Below are positions 1,478 through 24,517 of a stretch of 35,983 nucleotides of DNA, piece after piece (the first letter of the stretch is position 1; each line of letters starts with the position of its first letter). The translations under genes and the position numbers were made by a program. Source of the stretch: Verrucomicrobiota bacterium (lineage in GTDB: Bacteria; Verrucomicrobiota; Verrucomicrobiia; Opitutales; Seribacteraceae); NCBI GenBank assembly GCA_027622665.1, contig JAQBYT010000038.1, positions 1 to 35,983 on the forward strand, given 5' to 3'. A model generated the notes under the pieces. The model had not been told where the DNA came from. It worked only from the letters and a program-made list of their open reading frames with translations, and did not search any database.

Positions 1478-1664
1478 AGCTTTTTGTATATTGTCTCCCG
1501 CACGAAAAGGTTGCAAGAGGTTTTTAAGGCTTTGATTGGCCCATAAAACATTGAGAATCAGGCTTTATTATACCATTTGAGCCTTAAAAGCCATAGATGT
1601 ATGCAATTTAGACTTTTAATTAGGTTTGTGTAGAATGAGACCTTTTGTTTTTTTAGAAAAATCT

Positions 1665-2738
1665 ATGCAGTACTATTACATCGATTCAAATGGGAAAACG
1701 GCAGGACCCTTAGGGGAAGACAAGCTTCGCGAACTTCATGCAAATGGCGAGATTAAGGATGATACTGAGATTGCTGCAGTCGGAGCCGCCGAATGGACAA
1801 CTTTTGCCAGTATCCTTTCAGATTTGCTTCCAGTCTCGTCCCTAAAGGGTGCTCTCTTGCCGCCCCCTTCTTTGTCCGATTCGGCCTTGCTCCCGCCTTC
1901 GCAGGTGGCGGGTGCCGTTGCGAGCGTTCCGGCTTCCTCAACGGGTTCAATCAGTTGCGATGAAATCGGCTACGAAGTGATCGGTGACGACCTTCAGGTG
2001 GTCGAGGTGGAACTGGATCCCGGAGAGACCGTCATTGCTGAGGCAGGAGCCATGAACTACATGGAAGATGGTATCTCCTTTGAGGCCAAGATGGGTGATG
2101 GTTCGCACCCAAATGAAGGACTCTTTGGCAAGCTTCTTAGTGCAGGCAAGCGTGTTCTGACCGGTGAATCCATATTCATGACCCATTTTACTAATAATGG
2201 ATCCGGCAAGAGGCGCGTAGCTTTTGCGGCTCCCTATCCCGGCAAGATTCTGGACCTGAATATGGCCGAACTGGGAAAGGAGGTGTTTTGTCAAAAAGAC
2301 TCTTTTCTTTGCGCTGCTCACGGTACGGAGGTTTCTATTGCTTTTCAGAAGCGACTTGGGGCAGGTTTCTTCGGAGGGGAGGGCTTTATTCTGCAAAAGC
2401 TAAAGGGAGACGGCATGGCTTTTTCCCACGCCGGAGGCACCGTTGTCAGAAAGGAGTTGAATGGTCAAACCCTACGGGTGGACACCGGGTGTATCGTGGC
2501 CTTCACTTCGGGTGTTGAGTACGACATTCAAATGGCCGGAGGTCTCAAATCCATGTTTTTTGGGGGAGAAGGCCTTTTTCTCGCTACCCTAAGTGGGCAT
2601 GGGACCGTTTGGTTGCAAAGTCTCCCGTTTTCTCGCTTGGCCGATCGCATATTACAGTCGGCTCCGTCGGCTGGCGGGAAGTCCAAGGGAGAAGGTTCTG
2701 TTCTCGGTGGCATCGGTCGCCTTTTGGATGGCGATTAA
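1665..2738 (+). CDS. AIM24 / TIGR00266 family protein with N-terminal GYF_2 domain
   Basis: N-terminus [16 protein letters not shown]...G.I..DT.I...G..EW is a GYF_2 pattern. After a Pro/Ser linker come AIM24 motifs ([72 protein letters not shown]). ATG 1665 is preferred over TTG 1626. Confidence 0.9.
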
Positions 2739-3851: not shown

Positions 3852-5336
3852 TTATTTCGATTCATTGCTTTTCGGGAGGGTCTTCTCCGTTGGATTGATT
3901 CCCATTACCTGTGCTTCAAATAGTAGGGTTCCATTTGCCTCGGTTCGGTTTAAGTCCATGTAAGTGGGAAGTTGAAGGCGTAACTGGAGTGTGGAACCGA
4001 TCTTCAAATTGATATTTTCTCCGTTGGTGGATGACGTGCCCATCATCTCCGTTATAGGTTGTTGGGCATCGCGATTTTTCGGCAAGTTGTCCTTGGTTTT
4101 GCCGTTGCCTTCTTCTTTTCCGCCAAAACTGCCGAAATTTCGTACCGTATCGATGAAATCAGAGAGCTGTTCTTGTTTGTTAACGGCTATCCATACTAAG
4201 GTTCCCGCGACGAGGACGACCACGGTTATTAACTTTTTGTTCAAGCCCATCCCCGTATTCGGCTTCTCAGGTCGCGGTCCGTCTATGTCTTCGTCCCATT
4301 CTTCCCATTCCTTTTTCTTTCGCCTTCGCTCAATAAAGGAGCCGGCGAGAATGGAAAGCTCGTAAAGTATGTAGAGGGGGATCGTGAGAATACTAAGGCT
4401 TACCGGATCTCCACCTGGCGTAATCAGTGCTGCAGAAACCATGAGAATGACAAATACCATGCGCCGGTTGCTTCTCAGTTTCTCTACTGAAAGCACCCCT
4501 ATCCAGGTGAGCAGTACGATGATAAGAGGGAATTCGAAGGCAAGTCCCACGGCGAAGGTCATCCATATCACCGTACTGTAATAGTTGCCCGCCTCGGGCC
4601 TGTAAGTATCGAGTCCGAGCACGTCGAAGGTGAACTCGATGGTAAAGGCGAGCGAGAAAGGTAGAATGACGAAGTAAGTCATTGCGGCTCCGGCTAGGAA
4701 TAGGATAAAGGCCACAATGCAGCCGGGGAAAAGCACGGATTTTTCTTTTAAAGACAGCCCCGGGATTACGAACCCACCGATGAAGTAAAAAATAAAGGGC
4801 AAGGAAATGCCCAAGCCGCCCAAAAAACATATCTTCATTGCAATGAAAATGGGAGAATAGGAGCGGATGACCTGTAGGAGGTGTCGGTTTTGACCGGCTT
4901 TGAAATGTGAAAGGATGCGAGTTCTGTGGTACGGGTCGCTTATGCCCCATTCAATTAGCGTCTGCTCGTCAGCGTTTCTTAATGTGCCAAGATCGATGTC
5001 CTTGTCGTGGAGAGGTTCGATATATTGTTCAAGGCCAATGCCTTGAAGATCGACGTCGATTTCTCCAAAGTCGTCCACGGCGGTTACCAGTGGTTGCTGG
5101 AGAATTTGGACGGATTCGTCGATGAATGCGGCAACCGCAACGCATCCCACAATAAAAGAAATAGCACACTTGAATATGACCCATCGCAACTCTTCGAGGT
5201 GTTCGAGGAAGTGCATCTGATTGGGGTCCTGATTCTTTTTTTCTTTTGGTTTGAGTGCCCCAATCAAGCCGTCATCGCGGAAACGTTCCGCAAAGGTTTT
5301 CGGTTTTTGTTTTTCAACTGGTTCTTGGTCACTCAT
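3852..5336 (-). CDS. tatC: Twin-arginine translocase subunit TatC, extended (SAM-like insertion, extra C-terminal TM and tail)
   Basis: Motifs M.FLEHLEELR, F..PGL...EK, YFVILP, FEFP, SAL.TP..DP.S and P.Y.LYE.SI. At 494 aa it is about twice the usual ~250 aa. Confidence 0.93.
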   Translation of the reverse strand: MSDQEPVEKQKPKTFAERFRDDGLIGALKPKEKKNQDPNQMHFLEHLEELRWVIFKCAISFIVGCVAVAAFIDESVQILQQPLVTAVDDFGEIDVDLQGIGLEQYIEPLHDKDIDLGTLRNADEQTLIEWGISDPYHRTRILSHFKAGQNRHLLQVIRSYSPIFIAMKICFLGGLGISLPFIFYFIGGFVIPGLSLKEKSVLFPGCIVAFILFLAGAAMTYFVILPFSLAFTIEFTFDVLGLDTYRPEAGNYYSTVIWMTFAVGLAFEFPLIIVLLTWIGVLSVEKLRSNRRMVFVILMVSAALITPGGDPVSLSILTIPLYILYELSILAGSFIERRRKKKEWEEWDEDIDGPRPEKPNTGMGLNKKLITVVVLVAGTLVWIAVNKQEQLSDFIDTVRNFGSFGGKEEGNGKTKDNLPKNRDAQQPITEMMGTSSTNGENINLKIGSTLQLRLQLPTYMDLNRTEANGTLLFEAQVMGINPTEKTLPKSNESK

Positions 5337-5591: not shown

Positions 5592-8339
5592 ATGGCTAAA
5601 AAGCAAAAAAAGACAGTGAAAAAATCAAGATCAACTGCCCCCAAGTACGTATATGACTTTGGCAAAAAGACCGATGGAGACGCCTCGCAACGTTCCCTCC
5701 TCGGGGGCAAGGGTGCGAACTTGGCCGAAATGGCTCGCATCGGGCTACCGGTTCCTCCCGGGTTTACTATTACGACCGAGGTTTGTACCCATTTCTACGC
5801 GAATGATCAAAGTTATCCGGAGGTTCTGGAAGAACAGGTTCGCAAGTCCGTTGCTCTTACTGAGAAACAGCTTGGCAAGAAACTAGGCGATCTCAAAAAT
5901 CCACTCCTCCTCTCGGTTCGTTCCGGTGCCCGCGACTCCATGCCGGGAATGATGGATACCATTCTCAATCTCGGCTTGAATGACGAAACGGTTGAAGCCC
6001 TTGCCACCTCTTCCGGGAATTCTCGTTTCGCATGGGATTGCTACAGGCGTTTTATTCAGATGTACGGTGGCGTCGTGATGGGCGTTCAGAAGTTGGATGG
6101 CGAGGAGCATGATCCCTTTGAAAGTGCAATCGATTGTTTGAAGGAGGAACTTTTTCCGAACGAGAAAGGCGAGATTGATGATAATCGTCTCAATGTCACG
6201 CAAATGAAAGAGCTTGTTTCTCGATTCAAGTCTTTGGTCAGAGAGCGTGCCGGGAGCGATTTCCCGACCTGCCCATGGGAGCAGCTTTGGGGTTCGACGG
6301 GTGCCGTCTTTGGTTCGTGGATGAACGACAGGGCCAATGTCTATCGTCGCAAATACGGAATTCCGGCCTCGTGGGGAACCGCAGTGAACGTTCAAGCCAT
6401 GGTGTTCGGGAATTCCGGTAAAAAATCAGGTTCGGGCGTTGGTTTTACTCGTGATCCCGCGAGCGGCGAAAAAGTGCTCTACGGAGAATTCCTCACCAAC
6501 GCTCAAGGTGAAGATGTGGTGGCAGGTGTTCGTACGCCTCGTCCTCTCTCCCAGCTCAAGCGTGTTCTCCCTAAATCCTTTACCGGTCTGGTCGCCGTCC
6601 AAAAGAAGCTTGAGAAGCACTTTAAGGACATGCAGGACTTTGAATTTACAATCGAGGATGAAAAGCTCTACATGCTTCAAACCCGCAATGGCAAGCGGAC
6701 GGGCATTGCTGCAGTTCGTATTGCCGTCGAGATGGTTAAGGAACGTCTTATCGACTGGAAAACGGCCATTACTCGTGTTCCTGCCGACCAACTGGACCAA
6801 GTGTTGTCACCCGTGTTTGATGCCGCTGCAGTAAAGAACGCAGACCTCCTTTGCAAAGGTTTGCCCGCTGGTCCCGGTGCTGCGAGTGGTCGTATTTTTC
6901 TTAATGCCGACCGAGCTGTGGTCGAAGCGAAGAAGGGCTCTGTATTACTCACTCGTGTTGAAACCTCTCCCGAAGACTTGCGCGGAATGATTGCGGCCGC
7001 AGGCATTCTCACTGCTCGCGGTGGCGTATCCTCTCATGCCGCCTTGGTTGCACGACAGATGGGCAAGGTTTGCGTATGTGGAGCCGCCGATCTGGAAGTC
7101 GATTACAAGGCTCGCACAGTCAAGGTTGCTGGAAAGACCTTCAAGGAAGGTGACTATCTTTCCATCGATGGTACGAGCGGTGAGGTCTTTGCTGGTGAGC
7201 TTAAGACCGCTCCTTCTGAGATCATCCAAGTTCTCATAGAGAAAACATTAGATCCAGAGAAGAGTAACGATTATCAGAATTTCGCAAAGTTGATGGATTG
7301 GTGCGAAAACGCCACCAAGTTAGGAGTTCGCGCCAATGCCGACTCTCCGTCCCAAGTGGTCAATGCAATCGCTTTCGGAGCATCGGGAATTGGACTCTGT
7401 CGTACCGAGCATATGTTCTTCGAGGGCAATCGTATCGACGCCATGCGCGAAATGATTTTGGCCGAGGAAGAAGATGCTCGCCGCAAGGCCCTCACGAAAC
7501 TCTTGCCGTACCAGCGTCGTGATTTCGCTGGAATATTCAAGGCTCTCGAGGGTCGTCCGGCTACCATCCGTTTGCTCGATCCGCCTCTGCATGAATTTCT
7601 GCCTAATGATGAATCTGCCCAGCGTGACCTTGCCAAAAAACTCGGTGTTTCTCTAGCCTCGATCAAAAAGCGCGTGGAAGATCTTCATGAATTCAATCCT
7701 ATGCTAGGCCACCGTGGTTGTCGTCTCGGGATTTCATATCCCGAGGTTACGGAAATGCAGGCTCGGGCCATTTTCGAGGCTGCCGTTCAAGTGCAGGCCG
7801 GAGGAATCGACGTAAGCCCTGAAATCATGGTTCCGCTCGTTGGTTTCCCCAAGGAACTCGAACTTCAGGTGGAGGTTATTCACCGTGTGGCCAAGGAGGT
7901 GTTTGCGGCCAAGGGAGCCAAGGTAAAATATTTGGTAGGCACTATGATCGAGATTCCGAGAGCGGCCTTGACCGCCGACGAGATAGCCAAGACAGCCCAG
8001 TTCTTTAGCTTTGGGACCAACGATCTGACACAGACGACTCTGGGTATGAGCCGTGATGATTCCGGGAGCTTCTTGTCCAATTACGCCGAACTTGATATTC
8101 TTGCCCAAAACCCTTTTGCCAGTGTTGATCAGAGTGGTGTAGGCAAGTTGATGGAAATGGCGGTAAAGCTTGGGAAAAAGAGCCGTCGTAATATTAAGTT
8201 GGGAATTTGTGGAGAGCACGGTGGCGATCCCGAAAGCATCAAGTTCTGCCACAAGATCGGTCTGCACTATGTTAGCTGCTCTCCTTACCGAGTTCCCACC
8301 GCTCGTCTTGCAGCCGCACAAGCTGCAGTTCAAAGCTAA
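5592..8339 (+). CDS. ppdK: Pyruvate, phosphate dikinase
   Basis: [38 protein letters not shown], phospho-His motif [28 protein letters not shown] and [10 protein letters not shown]. Confidence 0.98.
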
Positions 8340-13421: not shown

Positions 13422-15545
13422 ATGCAAATTCATATTAACAAGGATGGGCAACCTTATGGACCTTATACGATCGATCAACTCAGAGAGTATGTTCAGCAAG
13501 GTCACTTCACCGAACAGGATTACGCCTGTTACGATGGCCAGAACTGGGTGACTGTTGTCCAAGTGCCCGGCTATGCCGGTGGTGCTCAACCGCAACAACC
13601 TCAGCATGATGCGCAGGCGCAGGCGCAAGCCTCCGCCCAACAAGCCCAAGCAGTCGCCCATCATCAGGCACAAGTTGCCCAAGCTCAGGCAATCGCTGCG
13701 GCTGCTACCACTGCGGCTGCCAAGAAAAAGAAGATTATTTTGTTTTCAAGCATTGGCGGAGTTGCCGCCTGCTTGATCGTCGGATTATTGATTTGGGCTC
13801 CATGGTCTGGCGGAGATGGTGAGAATGAAGATAACACCGAAGTGGCTTCAGGCGAAAGTGGTGACGATGCAGATAAGTCAACTCCCGCCGCAATAACTCC
13901 TGCCACGCCTACTGCATCTCTTCCCTTGGAGAAATATATACCGACCAATGCCGCAGGAGCCTTTGTCCTCCCGGTAACGCAGATCGTCGAGAAAGTCGGC
14001 ATTGATTCCTTGGCCGAAATGGTTCCTCCTCCTTTCAACCTCATTCTTGAGAATTACCAACAACAGGGGGTTGATTTTGCAGAACCGATACAGGCTTTTC
14101 TTATTCTGGATGCCGATGATCCTAATCAGCCCACCTTTGGCGCATTGATCAGGTTGAGCGATCCTCAAAAATTCCAAAAAGGTCTTGTCCCCTTGGTCAC
14201 TCAAGGCGCCCAGCCAACTAGCAAGGATGGGTACGATGAGTATGCCTTGGGTAATGGTTCTGATGCCGGTCTCTTGGTTGTCGCCGGTGATGTTGCTCTA
14301 GTGCTGGGGGGGGAAGGAAAAGCCGAGAACCTTCCTTCTTTGGCCAAGAATATCATCACTTCCGATGGTTCGGATTCCTTTGCAAAAGCCAGTTATGGTT
14401 ACGAGGATTTCGTAAAGGAAGGTCATGATTTGGGCTTTTGGTTAGACCTGAACAAAATATCGGAAGCATCGCCCGAGGAGATTCCCTCTGAAGCCGCAAC
14501 TCTGTTAAAGGGTGGAACAGGTGCGGTCTATCTTGATTTTGTTGATGGTGAGGCCAGCATTGCCGGAGAGTTCCATCTGGCAGAGACCGCTCCCAAATTG
14601 GGTCGTGGGGGTCTTTCCGTAGATGTAATCAAGCTAATCCCATCTGATTCTTTGGCGGCCATTTCATTGGCCTTGGACATGAAGGCCATCGAGCGCTTTA
14701 TTGAAGAAGTCGTTGTGCCAACTGCAAAAGCAGAAGGCGAGGAGATCAACCTAGACGAAATTGACCCCGACATCGGGATCAAGCCGAGGGACGTCATTCA
14801 GGCATTCAAGGGAGAATTCTCCCTTGCGGTCACTGACGTCGCCATTCCCGACGGAGGTTCGGACATACCCTTGCAGGATGCTCCCGCCGTTGCCGACCCA
14901 TTCGGTGGCGCCAAAGAAGCCCCCGGTGATCCTTTTGGCGAACCCTCCGTCACTCCCTTCCCGGGAGCAGGTGCCGCTGACGGTCCCAACGAGGAAGGTA
15001 CTGATATAGGAGATGGTGCCCCGCAGGTGGAATTCCTTTTTGCCGCAACCATAGATCCCGCCAAATGGGAAACCTTGAAGACTTCTCCACCCATCGGTAT
15101 GGCCATGGGGGGAGCAATGTTGATGGGGTTTTCAGTAATAGCCGAAAATGGAAAACTCATTGTCGCCAGCAAGAAGCATGCGGACGAAGCTAAGGCGGGC
15201 AAAGTCAGCAAAAACGTTTCCGGAGCTGAACTCGACTTGTTCCAAAAGAACGATTTTGTCCTGAAATTCGACTTGGCCAAGGCCGCTCAAATGAAAGACA
15301 CGCCGATTCCTCCTCCGGCATTCAAGGCTCTTGAAAAACTCAGCTACCTCGCGATAACTGGGACATCCAATGAAAAAGGTGGTTCCGGAGCTCTCCGCAT
15401 AGGTATGGCTGACAAAAACAAGAACAGTCTAGCCTCTTTCATGGAACTTATTCCCATGCTTCAATCCCTGGGAGGTGAAATGGAAGGGCGATCAAGTGGT
15501 TTTGACGAAGGTGGGCCTGATTTCGAAGATGCACCGAACTTCTGA
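13422..15545 (+). CDS. GYF_2-domain membrane-anchored protein with large extracytoplasmic domain
   Basis: N-terminal IHINKDGQPYGPYTIDQL......G.F...D.A..DG..W (GYF_2), then a Q/A-rich linker, KKKK plus one TM helix, and a ~570-aa acidic domain resembling PVC DUF3352/DUF4836-like proteins. Confidence 0.82.
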   Translation: MQIHINKDGQPYGPYTIDQLREYVQQGHFTEQDYACYDGQNWVTVVQVPGYAGGAQPQQPQHDAQAQAQASAQQAQAVAHHQAQVAQAQAIAAAATTAAAKKKKIILFSSIGGVAACLIVGLLIWAPWSGGDGENEDNTEVASGESGDDADKSTPAAITPATPTASLPLEKYIPTNAAGAFVLPVTQIVEKVGIDSLAEMVPPPFNLILENYQQQGVDFAEPIQAFLILDADDPNQPTFGALIRLSDPQKFQKGLVPLVTQGAQPTSKDGYDEYALGNGSDAGLLVVAGDVALVLGGEGKAENLPSLAKNIITSDGSDSFAKASYGYEDFVKEGHDLGFWLDLNKISEASPEEIPSEAATLLKGGTGAVYLDFVDGEASIAGEFHLAETAPKLGRGGLSVDVIKLIPSDSLAAISLALDMKAIERFIEEVVVPTAKAEGEEINLDEIDPDIGIKPRDVIQAFKGEFSLAVTDVAIPDGGSDIPLQDAPAVADPFGGAKEAPGDPFGEPSVTPFPGAGAADGPNEEGTDIGDGAPQVEFLFAATIDPAKWETLKTSPPIGMAMGGAMLMGFSVIAENGKLIVASKKHADEAKAGKVSKNVSGAELDLFQKNDFVLKFDLAKAAQMKDTPIPPPAFKALEKLSYLAITGTSNEKGGSGALRIGMADKNKNSLASFMELIPMLQSLGGEMEGRSSGFDEGGPDFEDAPNF

Positions 15546-21354: not shown

Positions 21355-22365
21355 TTAGGAGTTTTCCTCGGACTTTGAAATCGTCTCCCGCATATCGGTG
21401 TCGGCTTGAATGTTGCGCATGCGATAGTAGTCCATGACGCCGAGGTTGCCGCTTCGGAATGCTTCCGCCATGGCAAGGGGAATCTGTGCTTCGGCTTCCA
21501 CTAACTTGGCCCGCATCTCTTGCACCTTGGCACGGTTTTCTTGTTCCATGGCGACGGCTGCGGCACGACGGATTTCGGCGTGCGCTTGCGCAACTTCTTT
21601 GTCTGCGGCTGCTTGAGACGTGCGTAGCATTGCCCCACGATTTTCGCCAAGGTCGACGTCGGCTATGTCGATGGAGAGGATCTCGAATGCGGTTCCTTGG
21701 TCAAGTCCTCTCGCCAGGACGCTTTCGGTAATGGAGTTGGGGTTTTCCAGAACGATCTTATAGTTTGCCGAAGACCCGATAGTGGAGATTATGCTCTCAC
21801 CTACGCGTGCAATAACTGTTTCTTCCTGTGCGCTGCCAACGTATCTATCGAGGTTGCTGCGAACGGTGACGCGAGCCCTCACCTTTACTTGGATCCCGTC
21901 TTTTGCTACACCGTCAATGGTATCGCGACCCTCGATTACACAATCGATGACCTTAGGGCTGATAGAGGTGCGTACTGCTTCCAGGACGGATTTGTTGGTG
22001 CCTTTGGTGGCCAAGTCGATGGCGCATGCGCGATCCCACGACAGTTCTATGTTCGCCTTCAATGCCGCAATTAGGGCCTGAACGGTTTGCACGACGTTGC
22101 CTTCGGCCAAGTAGTGCGCTTCGAGCTCGTCGGTAGTCAAAGGAATCCCCGCTTTCATTGCAGTAATGCGAGCATCCACAATTAGACCAACGGGAACGCC
22201 TCTTAGCCGCATAGCCAAAAGGGTGCTGAAGCCTACCTTGGCTTTCGCGAGTAAAGCTTTCAACCAAGTGTTGAAAAAGGAGATGATAATAAAAAATATT
22301 ACGAGTCCGACTACTAGTATTAGTCCGATAAGAATGTATTCCCACTGAATGTATTCCCACTGCAT
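21355..22365 (-). CDS. floA: Flotillin-like protein FloA (YqfA/UPF0365)
   Basis: L..MRLR.V, LEAHYLA.GNV, A.AIDLA, VAKDGIQ...[47 protein letters not shown] and [13 protein letters not shown]. Confidence 0.95.
22332..22361. repeat. Exact 15-bp tandem duplication at floA 5' end
   Basis: GAATGTATTCCCACT twice, giving [14 protein letters not shown]. Confidence 0.9.
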
Positions 22366-22471
22366 GATTTTTTTTGTTTAGAATATTTGGTTGATCAATG
22401 ATTCGATGAGTTGTCTCATGAAAAGATTATTAGAAACTAGCTTTCTGGGCATCGGTCTGTAAAGCTCAAGA

Positions 22472-22939
22472 TCAGAGTTTCCTTACTTTCAATCTATAGC
22501 CGTCCTTGCCGCTTACCCTTAGAGCGGTGCCTTTTGAAGCGTATCCGTCTTCGCAAAAGGCATCGTATCGCTCGTCTCCGATGGCGATTATGCCTTCGGG
22601 TTTCAATGGCGTTGCCGCTTTGCCTTCCATGCCCACTACTTCGTCCGGTGCAATCGGGGGGTTGCTGGAACCACTCACGGCTTTTCCCAGAAAGAAGGCC
22701 TTTCCTAGACGACTTCCTTCCAGCCACCTCAATTCAATCAAGACTAGGAAGATGGCCCCGATCCCTCCCAGCAGAAAGGTCAGTCCGGATGCAAACCAGT
22801 CGCCATATTCCTGATGAGTCGCCACTGCGGAACCGACGATGCAACAGAAACCCAACAGGCCCAGCACACCGCCGGGCACTAAGACCTCAAAGAAGATCAA
22901 GGCATAGGCAATGAGTAACAGACCGATTATCCAGCTCAT
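22472..22939 (-). CDS. Short NfeD family protein (TM + OB-fold)
   Basis: FEVLVPGG.LG.LG TM bundle and C-terminal VG.EG.A.TPLKPEG......RYDA. Confidence 0.88.
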   Translation of the reverse strand: MSWIIGLLLIAYALIFFEVLVPGGVLGLLGFCCIVGSAVATHQEYGDWFASGLTFLLGGIGAIFLVLIELRWLEGSRLGKAFFLGKAVSGSSNPPIAPDEVVGMEGKAATPLKPEGIIAIGDERYDAFCEDGYASKGTALRVSGKDGYRLKVRKL

Positions 22940-22945
22940 GCGACT

Positions 22946-24517
22946 TTACTTTCTAGTCACCACGAGGTTGAAATCTCGATGGCCCACTACCTCGATGGTT
23001 TCCCCCTTGCGGATTGTTCCGGATCGGGCTTGCGACTCGTAGCGCCGACCGGCTATTTCAACTTCGCCCGTCGGATACAGTTGGGTGACGGCCTTGCCCT
23101 CCGTTCCGATGGCGGGCAGTTCATCGGGAGCATCGGACGAATCCGCCCCGCCCGTGACCACCGGGTTCGCGCCTCCCACCGTATGGCCTAGGACGAAATT
23201 GTTCCACAACGGCGTGTGAGGCAATAAACGCGCCGCCAAAAAACCGAGGCCGACCGTGATCAGCAAACCATAGCATAGATCCAAGATCGGTTGCTTGAAC
23301 AGGTCGATGGACCATGTGAAATCGGGAGTTGGCCAAACGTCGACCATTGCCCAAAGCAAGGAGCCCAGCATCATGACCATCCCCAGCAAGGCGGGCACCA
23401 CCAATCCGGGGAACAGAAAAACTTCCAGCGCCACCAAGCACGCCCCGAGAAGAAAAACGATGACTTCCTCGTAACCTGCGAAACCCGCAACGTACTTGCT
23501 CCCGAAAAATATCATCAACAAAACCAGTCCCGATGCACCGAATACACCGAATCCCGGAGTCTTGAACTCAATGAACAGCAAAAGCATTCCCAGTCCCATG
23601 ACGATCGGTCCCACGCTATTCAGCCACAGCCCGAGTCTCTCCGCCCAGTTCACCTCCATGCGGACAACCTCGTAGTTGCCTTCTCCATACTTCTCGGCGA
23701 GCAAGTCCTCGATCGTCTTGTAGATACCGGTACCCAGCAGCGGTTGAGGGGGTTCCCCGTATTCCATGACGGCTTCCTCCGCAGTGAGTGTCAGCAATTC
23801 CCCCTCCCCTTGGATTGGGGAACCATCGGCGGTCAGGGGTTGCTCACCCTCTACGAAGAGTGTTTCGTTCGCGTCCATCATTGCGGCCATCACCCGAGCG
23901 CGGTATCGATGTTTGCCCGTGAAACAACGTATTTTCGCCTTCAGGTAGGAATTTACTTTGCGTTTCATCGAGGAATCGATGTTTCCACCACCACCGCTTA
24001 CGACTTCGGCCGCCCCTATCTGCCCGTAGGGAGCAAAGGCGATCTCGTTCGTGGCGACTGCAATGTAGGCGCCTGCGGAAATGGCCTCCGTGTTGACGTA
24101 GGTGATGATTGGTCCCTCGAAACGCTCGAACGACTCAATTATTTCTTGCATGATCTCGAGCGTCACTCCCAGTTCGCCACCGGGAGTATGCATGTCAAGG
24201 ATGACGGTTGTCGCCTCTGCTCGAATGGCGTCTTTGAGCCCTCTTCGCAGGATGTCGAGAATGGGTCCGCCGATCTGGTCGCGAACCGGGATAACGTAGG
24301 CCTTGGCCTTCCCCCCACCTATTTCCGCTTCCTCGGTAGTGTTGGTTTCGGATGCGATCGCATCTAGGCTGGCGTTGTTTTCAGCGACGATCTTGCTCGA
24401 ACTGGCGTTTGCCTCGTCCGCACCGCCGGCATTTTCTTCTGCGAGTACAGGAAGTGCAAATCCAAACACAGCCATTAAGCAAGCAATGGCACGGGTAGTT
24501 GATAGTTTTTTGGCCAA
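22946..24517 (-). CDS. nfeD: Long NfeD / YqeZ membrane-bound ClpP-class serine protease
   Basis: Signal peptide, ILDMHTPGG, AISAGAYIA (catalytic Ser), IGAA, AMMD, LLTLTA.EA, EFKTPGFGV.G, LEVF.FPG and a C-terminal OB fold (G.A.T.LYPTG.V). The TTG start is uncertain. Confidence 0.9.
   Translation of the reverse strand: MAKKLSTTRAIACLMAVFGFALPVLAEENAGGADEANASSSKIVAENNASLDAIASETNTTEEAEIGGGKAKAYVIPVRDQIGGPILDILRRGLKDAIRAEATTVILDMHTPGGELGVTLEIMQEIIESFERFEGPIITYVNTEAISAGAYIAVATNEIAFAPYGQIGAAEVVSGGGGNIDSSMKRKVNSYLKAKIRCFTGKHRYRARVMAAMMDANETLFVEGEQPLTADGSPIQGEGELLTLTAEEAVMEYGEPPQPLLGTGIYKTIEDLLAEKYGEGNYEVVRMEVNWAERLGLWLNSVGPIVMGLGMLLLFIEFKTPGFGVFGASGLVLLMIFFGSKYVAGFAGYEEVIVFLLGACLVALEVFLFPGLVVPALLGMVMMLGSLLWAMVDVWPTPDFTWSIDLFKQPILDLCYGLLITVGLGFLAARLLPHTPLWNNFVLGHTVGGANPVVTGGADSSDAPDELPAIGTEGKAVTQLYPTGEVEIAGRRYESQARSGTIRKGETIEVVGHRDFNLVVTRK

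Follow-up and report, generated by a model that had tools for sequence, protein, structure and literature searches.

A SAM domain inserted in the first periplasmic loop of TatC in one marine family of Opitutales

It was found that residues 90-147 of the TatC protein of a Verrucomicrobiota bacterium of the order Opitutales are a true SAM domain, which occupies the turn of the first periplasmic loop. The tatC gene lies in the window, that is, the whole stretch of DNA analyzed here (35,983 nucleotides). A preliminary description of this DNA, made from the sequence only, had noticed about 58 additional residues between TM1 and TM2, had read them as a SAM domain in that loop, and had supposed that the domain scaffolds the oligomerization or partner recruitment of the translocase. 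The insert is a trait of a whole family, and I tentatively suggest below that it has a structural role other than SAM polymerization.

The tatC gene and its insert

The features of the tatC locus are listed here by their positions in the window; residue numbers are those of the tatC product.

3852..5336, minus strand: tatC, 494 aa, the sole TatC found in the genome (profile matches, tblastn)
5121..5210, minus strand: HLEELR N-terminal motif plus TM1, aa 43-72; E. coli H12, E15, and R17 have their equivalents here (alignment to E. coli TatC, conservation)
4896..5069, minus strand: the inserted SAM domain, aa 90-147, at the turn of the first periplasmic loop, a net gain of 57 aa (Pfam, PDB profile search, model, Foldseek)
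4929..4931, minus strand: Y136, at the end-helix glycine position (alignment to EphA2 G953)
4845..4883, minus strand: rest of periplasmic loop 1, aa 152-164, with the equivalents of the E. coli 64-65 TatC-TatC contact, intact and highly conserved
4317..4856, minus strand: TatC core TM2-TM6, aa 161-340, with the equivalents of F94, P97, L99, E103, E170, T208, and D211 (alignment, model)
4581..4643, minus strand: periplasmic loop 2, aa 232-252, charged and hardly varying within the crown group of the family, different in the basal genus
4179..4238, minus strand: seventh transmembrane helix, aa 367-386, in the crown group only (hydropathy, model)
3894..3992, minus strand: C-terminal tail with predicted beta-strands at aa 449-455 and 474-481, predicted to be periplasmic, with low model confidence
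5592..8339, plus strand: ppdK, in divergent orientation to tatC; Opitutales with and without the SAM domain share this neighbour

Elsewhere in the window, an N-terminal GYF_2 domain is found on an AIM24 protein (1626-2738, plus strand) and on a DUF4836 protein (13422-15545, plus strand), and genes for NfeD, a short NfeD, and the flotillin-like FloA stand in a row at 21355-24517 on the minus strand.

The Pfam TatC profile matches aa 45-320 of the product with 181 bits, and the NCBIfam profile TIGR00945 (tatC) gives 146.7 bits against a cut-off of 132.7. A tblastn search for a second tatC returned one match only in this genome, which is 93.5% complete. An AlphaFold2 model of the 494-residue protein was built on a 113-sequence alignment (mean pLDDT 68.9 overall), and the top seven Foldseek matches of the model are all TatC proteins with the six-helix glove fold (E from 4e-8 to 6e-5). 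The equivalents of E. coli H12, E15, R17, P48, F94, P97, L99, E103, E170, T208, and D211 are all present. These functional residues are invariant or nearly so across the 113 aligned TatCs, with the E170 position being Gln in 99 of them. One TatA-family (TatA/B/E) match was found in the genome, on another contig than tatC. A rough scan detected 75 crude twin-arginine motif matches, some of them false, among 3769 frames of at least 200 aa. RNA-library contigs from two runs cover tatC in pieces, and contigs cannot by themselves show transcription. Judging from the sequence, this is the working TatC of a two-component (TatA plus TatC) translocase, for which transport is predicted. Where Opitutales genomes have a TatA-family match at all, it is mostly a single one; this is thus a TatA-TatC system, and the SAM domain did not replace a TatB. 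For the same reason, a gain of the SAM domain as compensation for the loss of TatB was rejected.

Is the insert really a SAM domain? The 58 residues are the exact translation of positions 4896-5069 of the minus strand, in frame within the 494-aa ORF. Pfam SAM_1 matches aa 97-144 with 28 bits (cut-off, 23) and the excised piece with 33 bits, and SAM_2 gives 21.5 bits on the window TatC (cut-off, 20.5). When a profile of 14 inserts was searched against the PDB, 43 sequences were matched at E<=0.01 and all 43 bear a SAM domain by name, the best being SHIP2. In the predicted model, five helices are formed at aa 93-146, with a pLDDT of 72-83 over most of the insert. Foldseek superposes it on the BICC1 SAM with an rmsd of 1.0 Å over 58-59 columns and a probability of 1.00, while the E-values for the SAM piece of the 494-aa model are only 0.1-0.7. 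Thus, the SAM assignment of the preliminary description was confirmed by profiles, and the combined AlphaFold and Foldseek check that it had proposed gave a five-helix bundle whose matches are SAM domains.

The predicted location also agrees with the description. TatC begins in the cytoplasm, so that the loop following TM1 should be periplasmic. The SAM-bearing loop is acidic (7 K+R versus 16 D+E), as expected for an outside loop. The spacing from the HLEE motif to the FVxPG motif is 143 in 14 of 14 loci of the family. In other Opitutales, it is 86-88 in 14 of 16 loci, and 147 and 151 in the remaining two. Loop 1 is thus 57 residues longer here than in the insert-free Opitutales orthologues. 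The SAM domain takes the place of the turn at about E. coli residues 53-57, around ten residues upstream of the contact segment, which stays intact; the residues just after the insert (aa 148-160) have a mean column identity of 0.93. In E. coli TatC, inter-subunit couplings were reported for 64-134, 65-137, and 71-140 (PMC5201420).

A chimeric assembly, which the description had named as a possible source of error, was rejected. DNA contigs of two runs bridge both junctions of the insert, the N-terminal junction is also spanned by a contig from an RNA library of a related strain, and TatC of this length is found family-wide. Moreover, the spacing is 143 in 119 of 120 close homologues among the matches listed, so that the loop length is constant.

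Distribution and history of the insert

How widespread is the SAM-bearing TatC? Of the 76 family genomes, 72 gave a TatC match, which in each case covers the whole query and has a span of insert length; the insert itself was read in 22 of the 72 and was inferred from the span for the others. The four genomes lacking a TatC match are 57-84% complete. The lineage-conservation check against Opitutales orthologues therefore came out in favour of a conserved insert. A search with the insert profile, which is blind to strongly diverged inserts, picked up 18 of 18 other genomes of the family and none of 282 genomes of other Opitutales families. A direct check of loop length in 16 non-family Opitutales loci revealed 14 without an insert and two with an unrelated one. 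Among 1.84 billion cluster representatives, the profile has 104 matches; it missed the proteins of the basal genus in this search. The TatC-carrying members of the 104 all look like the family protein or its fragments; the rest are mostly SAM proteins, besides around a dozen chance matches to repeat-rich sequences. The named sources of homologues are metagenome-assembled genomes of Opitutales or Opitutae, and the runs matching SAM-TatC are marine, estuarine, or aquatic.

Pfam already labels most of the 120 homologues, among the matches listed, with TatC plus SAM_1, while no description of a TatC-SAM fusion was found in the open-access literature. Thus, the architecture is present in databases yet apparently undescribed.

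Some other TatC variants were met in the order. Two TatCs of genus g62 in family f3 (L025:1474-2910 and L028:1474-2859, both plus strand) carry 61-65 additional residues at the same loop 1 turn, an unrelated insert that gives no SAM match, and have a long acidic C-terminal tail. TatC matches in family f28 (G102:C65:8757-9293, G028:C17:4301-4840, G081:C22:18882-19421, and G058:C218:24483-25025) lie in open frames of 563-606 residues, and further extended TatC architectures may thus exist in Opitutales. A second, insert-free TatC, 28% identical to that of the window, was found in G311 (L055:2652-3398, minus strand), a genome with 7% contamination, where it is probably on a contaminant contig. 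Neither a TatC nor a TatA match was found in those genomes of about 0.8-1.1 Mb that were searched in families f4, f8, and f20.

The SAM-bearing TatCs (24 sequences) form one clade with a support of 0.998 in a tree of 245 core columns rooted on distant TatC. The tatC gene is divergent from ppdK in the SAM-bearing loci and in most SAM-less loci, and its other neighbours are genes for an S4 protein and an HTH protein. As the ppdK neighbour is common to loci of both kinds, the tatC locus is orthologous. The shared locus and the single clade on core columns indicate that the SAM domain was inserted once into a resident tatC gene, in the ancestor of one marine Opitutales family. A recent transfer or an insertion by a mobile element was also considered and rejected: the junction zones share no word of six or more bases, and the GC content of the insert, close to that of the rest of tatC in three genomes, gives no sign of it. 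Few genomes of the phylum have a SAM_1 match (4 of 301, the source genome being one of them). Bacterial-looking and eukaryote-looking SAM domains interleave at 31-46 bits against the insert profile, so that the donor is not separable by score.

The insert is maintained by selection. In the closest pair of genes, pN and pS are 0.047 and 0.40 for the insert, and 0.025 and 0.31 for the core. Over 171 pairs of 19 genes, the mean pN is 0.274 for the insert versus 0.123 for the core, with synonymous sites being saturated. Since pN is lower than pS and the loop length is unchanged, purifying selection acts on the insert, which is about half as constrained as the core.

The family consists of a crown group, to which the window TatC belongs, and a basal genus (two genomes and nine protein clusters) whose TatCs are about 47% identical overall to those of the crown. 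The basal loci and protein clusters are as follows.

L052:3821-4897, minus strand: basal-genus TatC
L053:3747-4829, plus strand: basal-genus TatC
P0242-P0250: protein clusters of the basal genus

The basal insert is 62 residues longer than the ancestral loop. It stays below the Pfam cut-off (SAM_2, 16.3 bits) but matches the crown profile at 93.9%, and its model has a pLDDT of about 90 and an rmsd of 1.0 Å to the BICC1 SAM over 53 columns. Four extra residues are found between its helices 3 and 4. The ten aligned basal inserts are strongly acidic, with a net charge from -6 to -12, and one may guess at cation binding.

The basal TatC has no C-terminal extension. In contrast, 113 of 115 full-length crown homologues have the seventh helix, which would run in-to-out, opposite to the TatA/TatB helices, according to the predicted topology. 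No Pfam family matches the C-terminal extension (3855-4316, minus strand), and the ESM Atlas returned no usable match for the tail or for the insert, a result that carries no weight. The mean column identity of the tail is 0.55, and its two strand motifs are conserved. The simplest order would be that the SAM domain was gained first and the C-terminal extension later.

Possible roles of the SAM domain

Is this SAM domain of the polymerising type? SAM polymers join the end-helix surface of one domain to the mid-loop surface of the next and wind into helices, six monomers making one turn (PMC6328559). A glycine where helix 5 begins has been described as characteristic of end-helix binding (PMC11820823). 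At the position of Y136, 82 distinct crown inserts have His (91%), Gln (6%), Tyr (1%), or Asp (1%), and Gly in no case; one of ten aligned basal inserts has the glycine. R140 is invariant in the crown and is replaced by Gln in ten of ten basal inserts. The crown inserts keep R140 and H137 with a net charge of mostly -2 to -8, and the mid-loop acidic residues D115 and E124 are present in 71% and 84% of them, respectively. A heterotypic SAM partner encoded in the same genome was also sought, and no second SAM was found by a SAM_1 search at E<=0.1 or by tblastn (93.5% completeness). From these sequence features, the SAM domain is probably not a polymerising one. The canonical form of the oligomerization supposed earlier was thus not supported, given the absent glycine, the loss of the arginine and the strong acidity in the basal genus, and the lack of a second SAM.

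A polymer or ring in which end-helix/mid-loop contacts cluster TatC subunits or whole translocons is very improbable. Its merits are that the domain is a bona fide SAM, that the crown keeps H137 and R140 of the end-helix motif with some of the mid-loop acidic residues, and that membrane tethering would raise the local concentration. It has to face the residue losses and the basal net charge just described, and a helix of six monomers per turn (PMC6328559) would fit a three-fold cup poorly.

Then, is the SAM domain just a tolerated passenger? It might sit in a permissive loop with no job of its own, kept since misfolding of the loop would harm an essential exporter and nothing short of an exact deletion would take the domain out. 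The periplasmic loops are the most variable part of TatC (PMC3827258). Only seven columns (G91, L97, G101, Y105, W130, G131, and F145) are invariant over the crown and basal inserts. They look like fold residues, so that no surface is conserved family-wide, and the SAM surface differs between the two groups. The insert evolves faster than the core, and the disordered insert in the same loop of Nitratifractor salsuginis and the unrelated one in family f3 suggest that the loop 1 site tolerates passengers. On the other hand, none of the 72 family genomes with a TatC match has lost the SAM domain, not even those of about 2 Mb (completeness, 90% or more), its loop has almost no indels, and several polar residues are 98-100% conserved in the crown. 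A mere passenger is conceivable, as a minority reading.

These polar residues are located on helices 1 and 5 (D96, 100%; Q98, 98%; H137, 99%; R140, 100%; H144, 99%). Together with the near-invariant charged loop 2 of the crown, their conservation would fit a crown-specific interface. What might be bound there? One answer is that the SAM domain is a docking site for the beta tail of TatC itself or for a separate partner, such as a signal peptidase, a chaperone, or exported substrates. The invariant polar patch occurs in the crown, as do the seventh helix and its tail, and both are absent from the basal genus; SAM domains are known to bind varied partners (PMC6328559), and the 75 crude motif matches would mean a heavy substrate load. 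However, no conserved neighbour gene (ppdK, S4 protein, HTH protein) hints at a partner, the tail is poorly conserved (0.55) and mostly of low confidence in the model, and the basal genus has a SAM domain without any tail. Docking is unlikely.

The explanation that I prefer, with a probability a little short of even, is that a domesticated SAM fold caps and braces the periplasmic apex of the TatAC translocase via non-canonical contacts. TatC would assemble as the usual trimeric cup, closed on the periplasmic side. Each SAM domain, held by short linkers, would sit on the periplasmic face as a compact cap, and its helix-1/helix-5 face may pack on TatC periplasmic loops of its own or a neighbouring subunit, perhaps also on other SAM domains. 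It would brace the closed apex, as the unrelated insert of Myxococcus xanthus does, without using the head-to-tail end-helix/mid-loop mode of SAM polymers. Transport of substrates would take place at the periphery, next to TatA, as it does in other Tat systems. Such a cap is favoured by the sole TatC, the twin-arginine motifs, the intact functional residues, the single clade, the purifying selection, and the fold kept in the basal genus. It is also favoured by the M. xanthus precedent and the crown-invariant polar residues of helices 1 and 5, which are as an interface would show. The roughly twofold faster evolution of the insert relative to the core counts against it, as do the absence of a surface conserved family-wide and the loop 1 inserts of N. 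salsuginis and family f3. Most other Opitutales with a single TatA-family match carry no SAM domain, and a cap is thus unnecessary for a TatAC system as such. The weights given here to capping and to its rivals come from conservation and precedent.

A more specific form is doubtful: the periplasmic SAM domains would make a three-fold lid on the Tat complex through an undescribed SAM interface, in which the His/Arg/Asp/Gln patch of the crown clamps loop 2 or the beta tail of the neighbouring subunit. Loop 2 (aa 232-252) is a candidate docking surface. If such a lid is real, it would be a bacterial periplasmic SAM domain with a structural role in protein export, and a single-TatA system would have gained an external brace. 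It would also be an independent, naturally sealed apex, favouring transport at the side of the complex. The view of the Tat mechanism is unchanged unless this lid is confirmed.

Whatever its role, the insert is a rare example of a SAM fold outside the bacterial cytoplasm. Being small and rigid, it may serve as a marker when a natural TatA-TatC system is studied by cryo-EM. If its position is shown, it will be a second, unrelated folded periplasmic domain kept family-wide, and thus an independent test case for the route that Tat substrates take.

Comparison with known SAM and TatC proteins

Eukaryotic SAM domains (SHIP2, EphA2, BICC1, ANKS, tankyrase, SARM1) have the same five-helix fold and core motifs. 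They are interaction modules of soluble compartments, and many bind end-helix to mid-loop. In contrast, the TatC insert is predicted to be periplasmic and has neither the N-terminal Trp nor the end-helix Gly. A non-cytosolic parallel is found in STIM proteins, whose SAM domain is ER-luminal.

Bacterial N-terminal SAM domains (P0171, P0217, P0223, and L056-L062 of Verrucomicrobiota) have similar scores, 37-42 bits, against the insert profile. They are rare in the phylum (3 of 300 other genomes) and occur on membrane or enzyme-like proteins. Unlike the TatC insert, they are N-terminal or nearly so, precede any hydrophobic segment, and are presumably cytoplasmic; most keep a GHR or GxR end-helix motif. 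Three of them (L056, L059, and L061, from G377) are encoded by tandem genes, and their products combine an N-terminal SAM with a proline-rich linker and a single hydrophobic segment. By eye, L058, L060, and L062 (G556) have a SAM ahead of an FGE-sulfatase-like domain, and L057 (G339) is one small SAM-membrane protein.

As for Tat systems, the minimal TatAC of Bacillus (TatAdCd/TatAyCy) likewise has one TatA-family gene plus TatC. The haloarchaeal TatCt and TatCx have four or eight extra C-terminal helices (PMC13673990), while the window TatC has one helix and a small tail. No SAM domain is mentioned for either system in the passages covered.

The closest parallels are two TatCs with large periplasmic inserts, disordered in N. 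salsuginis, and folded and trimeric in M. xanthus (PMC13323110). By cryo-EM, the TatC trimer is packed tightly at the periplasmic side (PMC13323110). It is still debated whether Tat substrates cross at the centre of the trimer or alongside it; one argument for the side route comes from the folded insert of M. xanthus (PMC13323110, PMC13186574). The N. salsuginis TatC (PDB 9E02, 9E07) has its insert in the same loop 1, and insert-free TatC aligns only from residue 156; the insert, of roughly 100 residues, is disordered in the cryo-EM maps (PMC13323110) and has no match to the SAM-insert profile. The M. xanthus TatC (PDB 9E03; isolated domain, 9E0S) also has a folded domain in a periplasmic loop, and its homotrimer augments the TatC-TatC contacts (PMC13323110). 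In contrast to the SAM insert, this domain (residues 127-303) belongs to periplasmic loop 2, has about three times the size, and does not match the SAM-insert profile, and the M. xanthus system has a TatB. Inserted periplasmic domains of TatC are thus already known from M. xanthus and N. salsuginis, and a SAM domain in that place is the new part.
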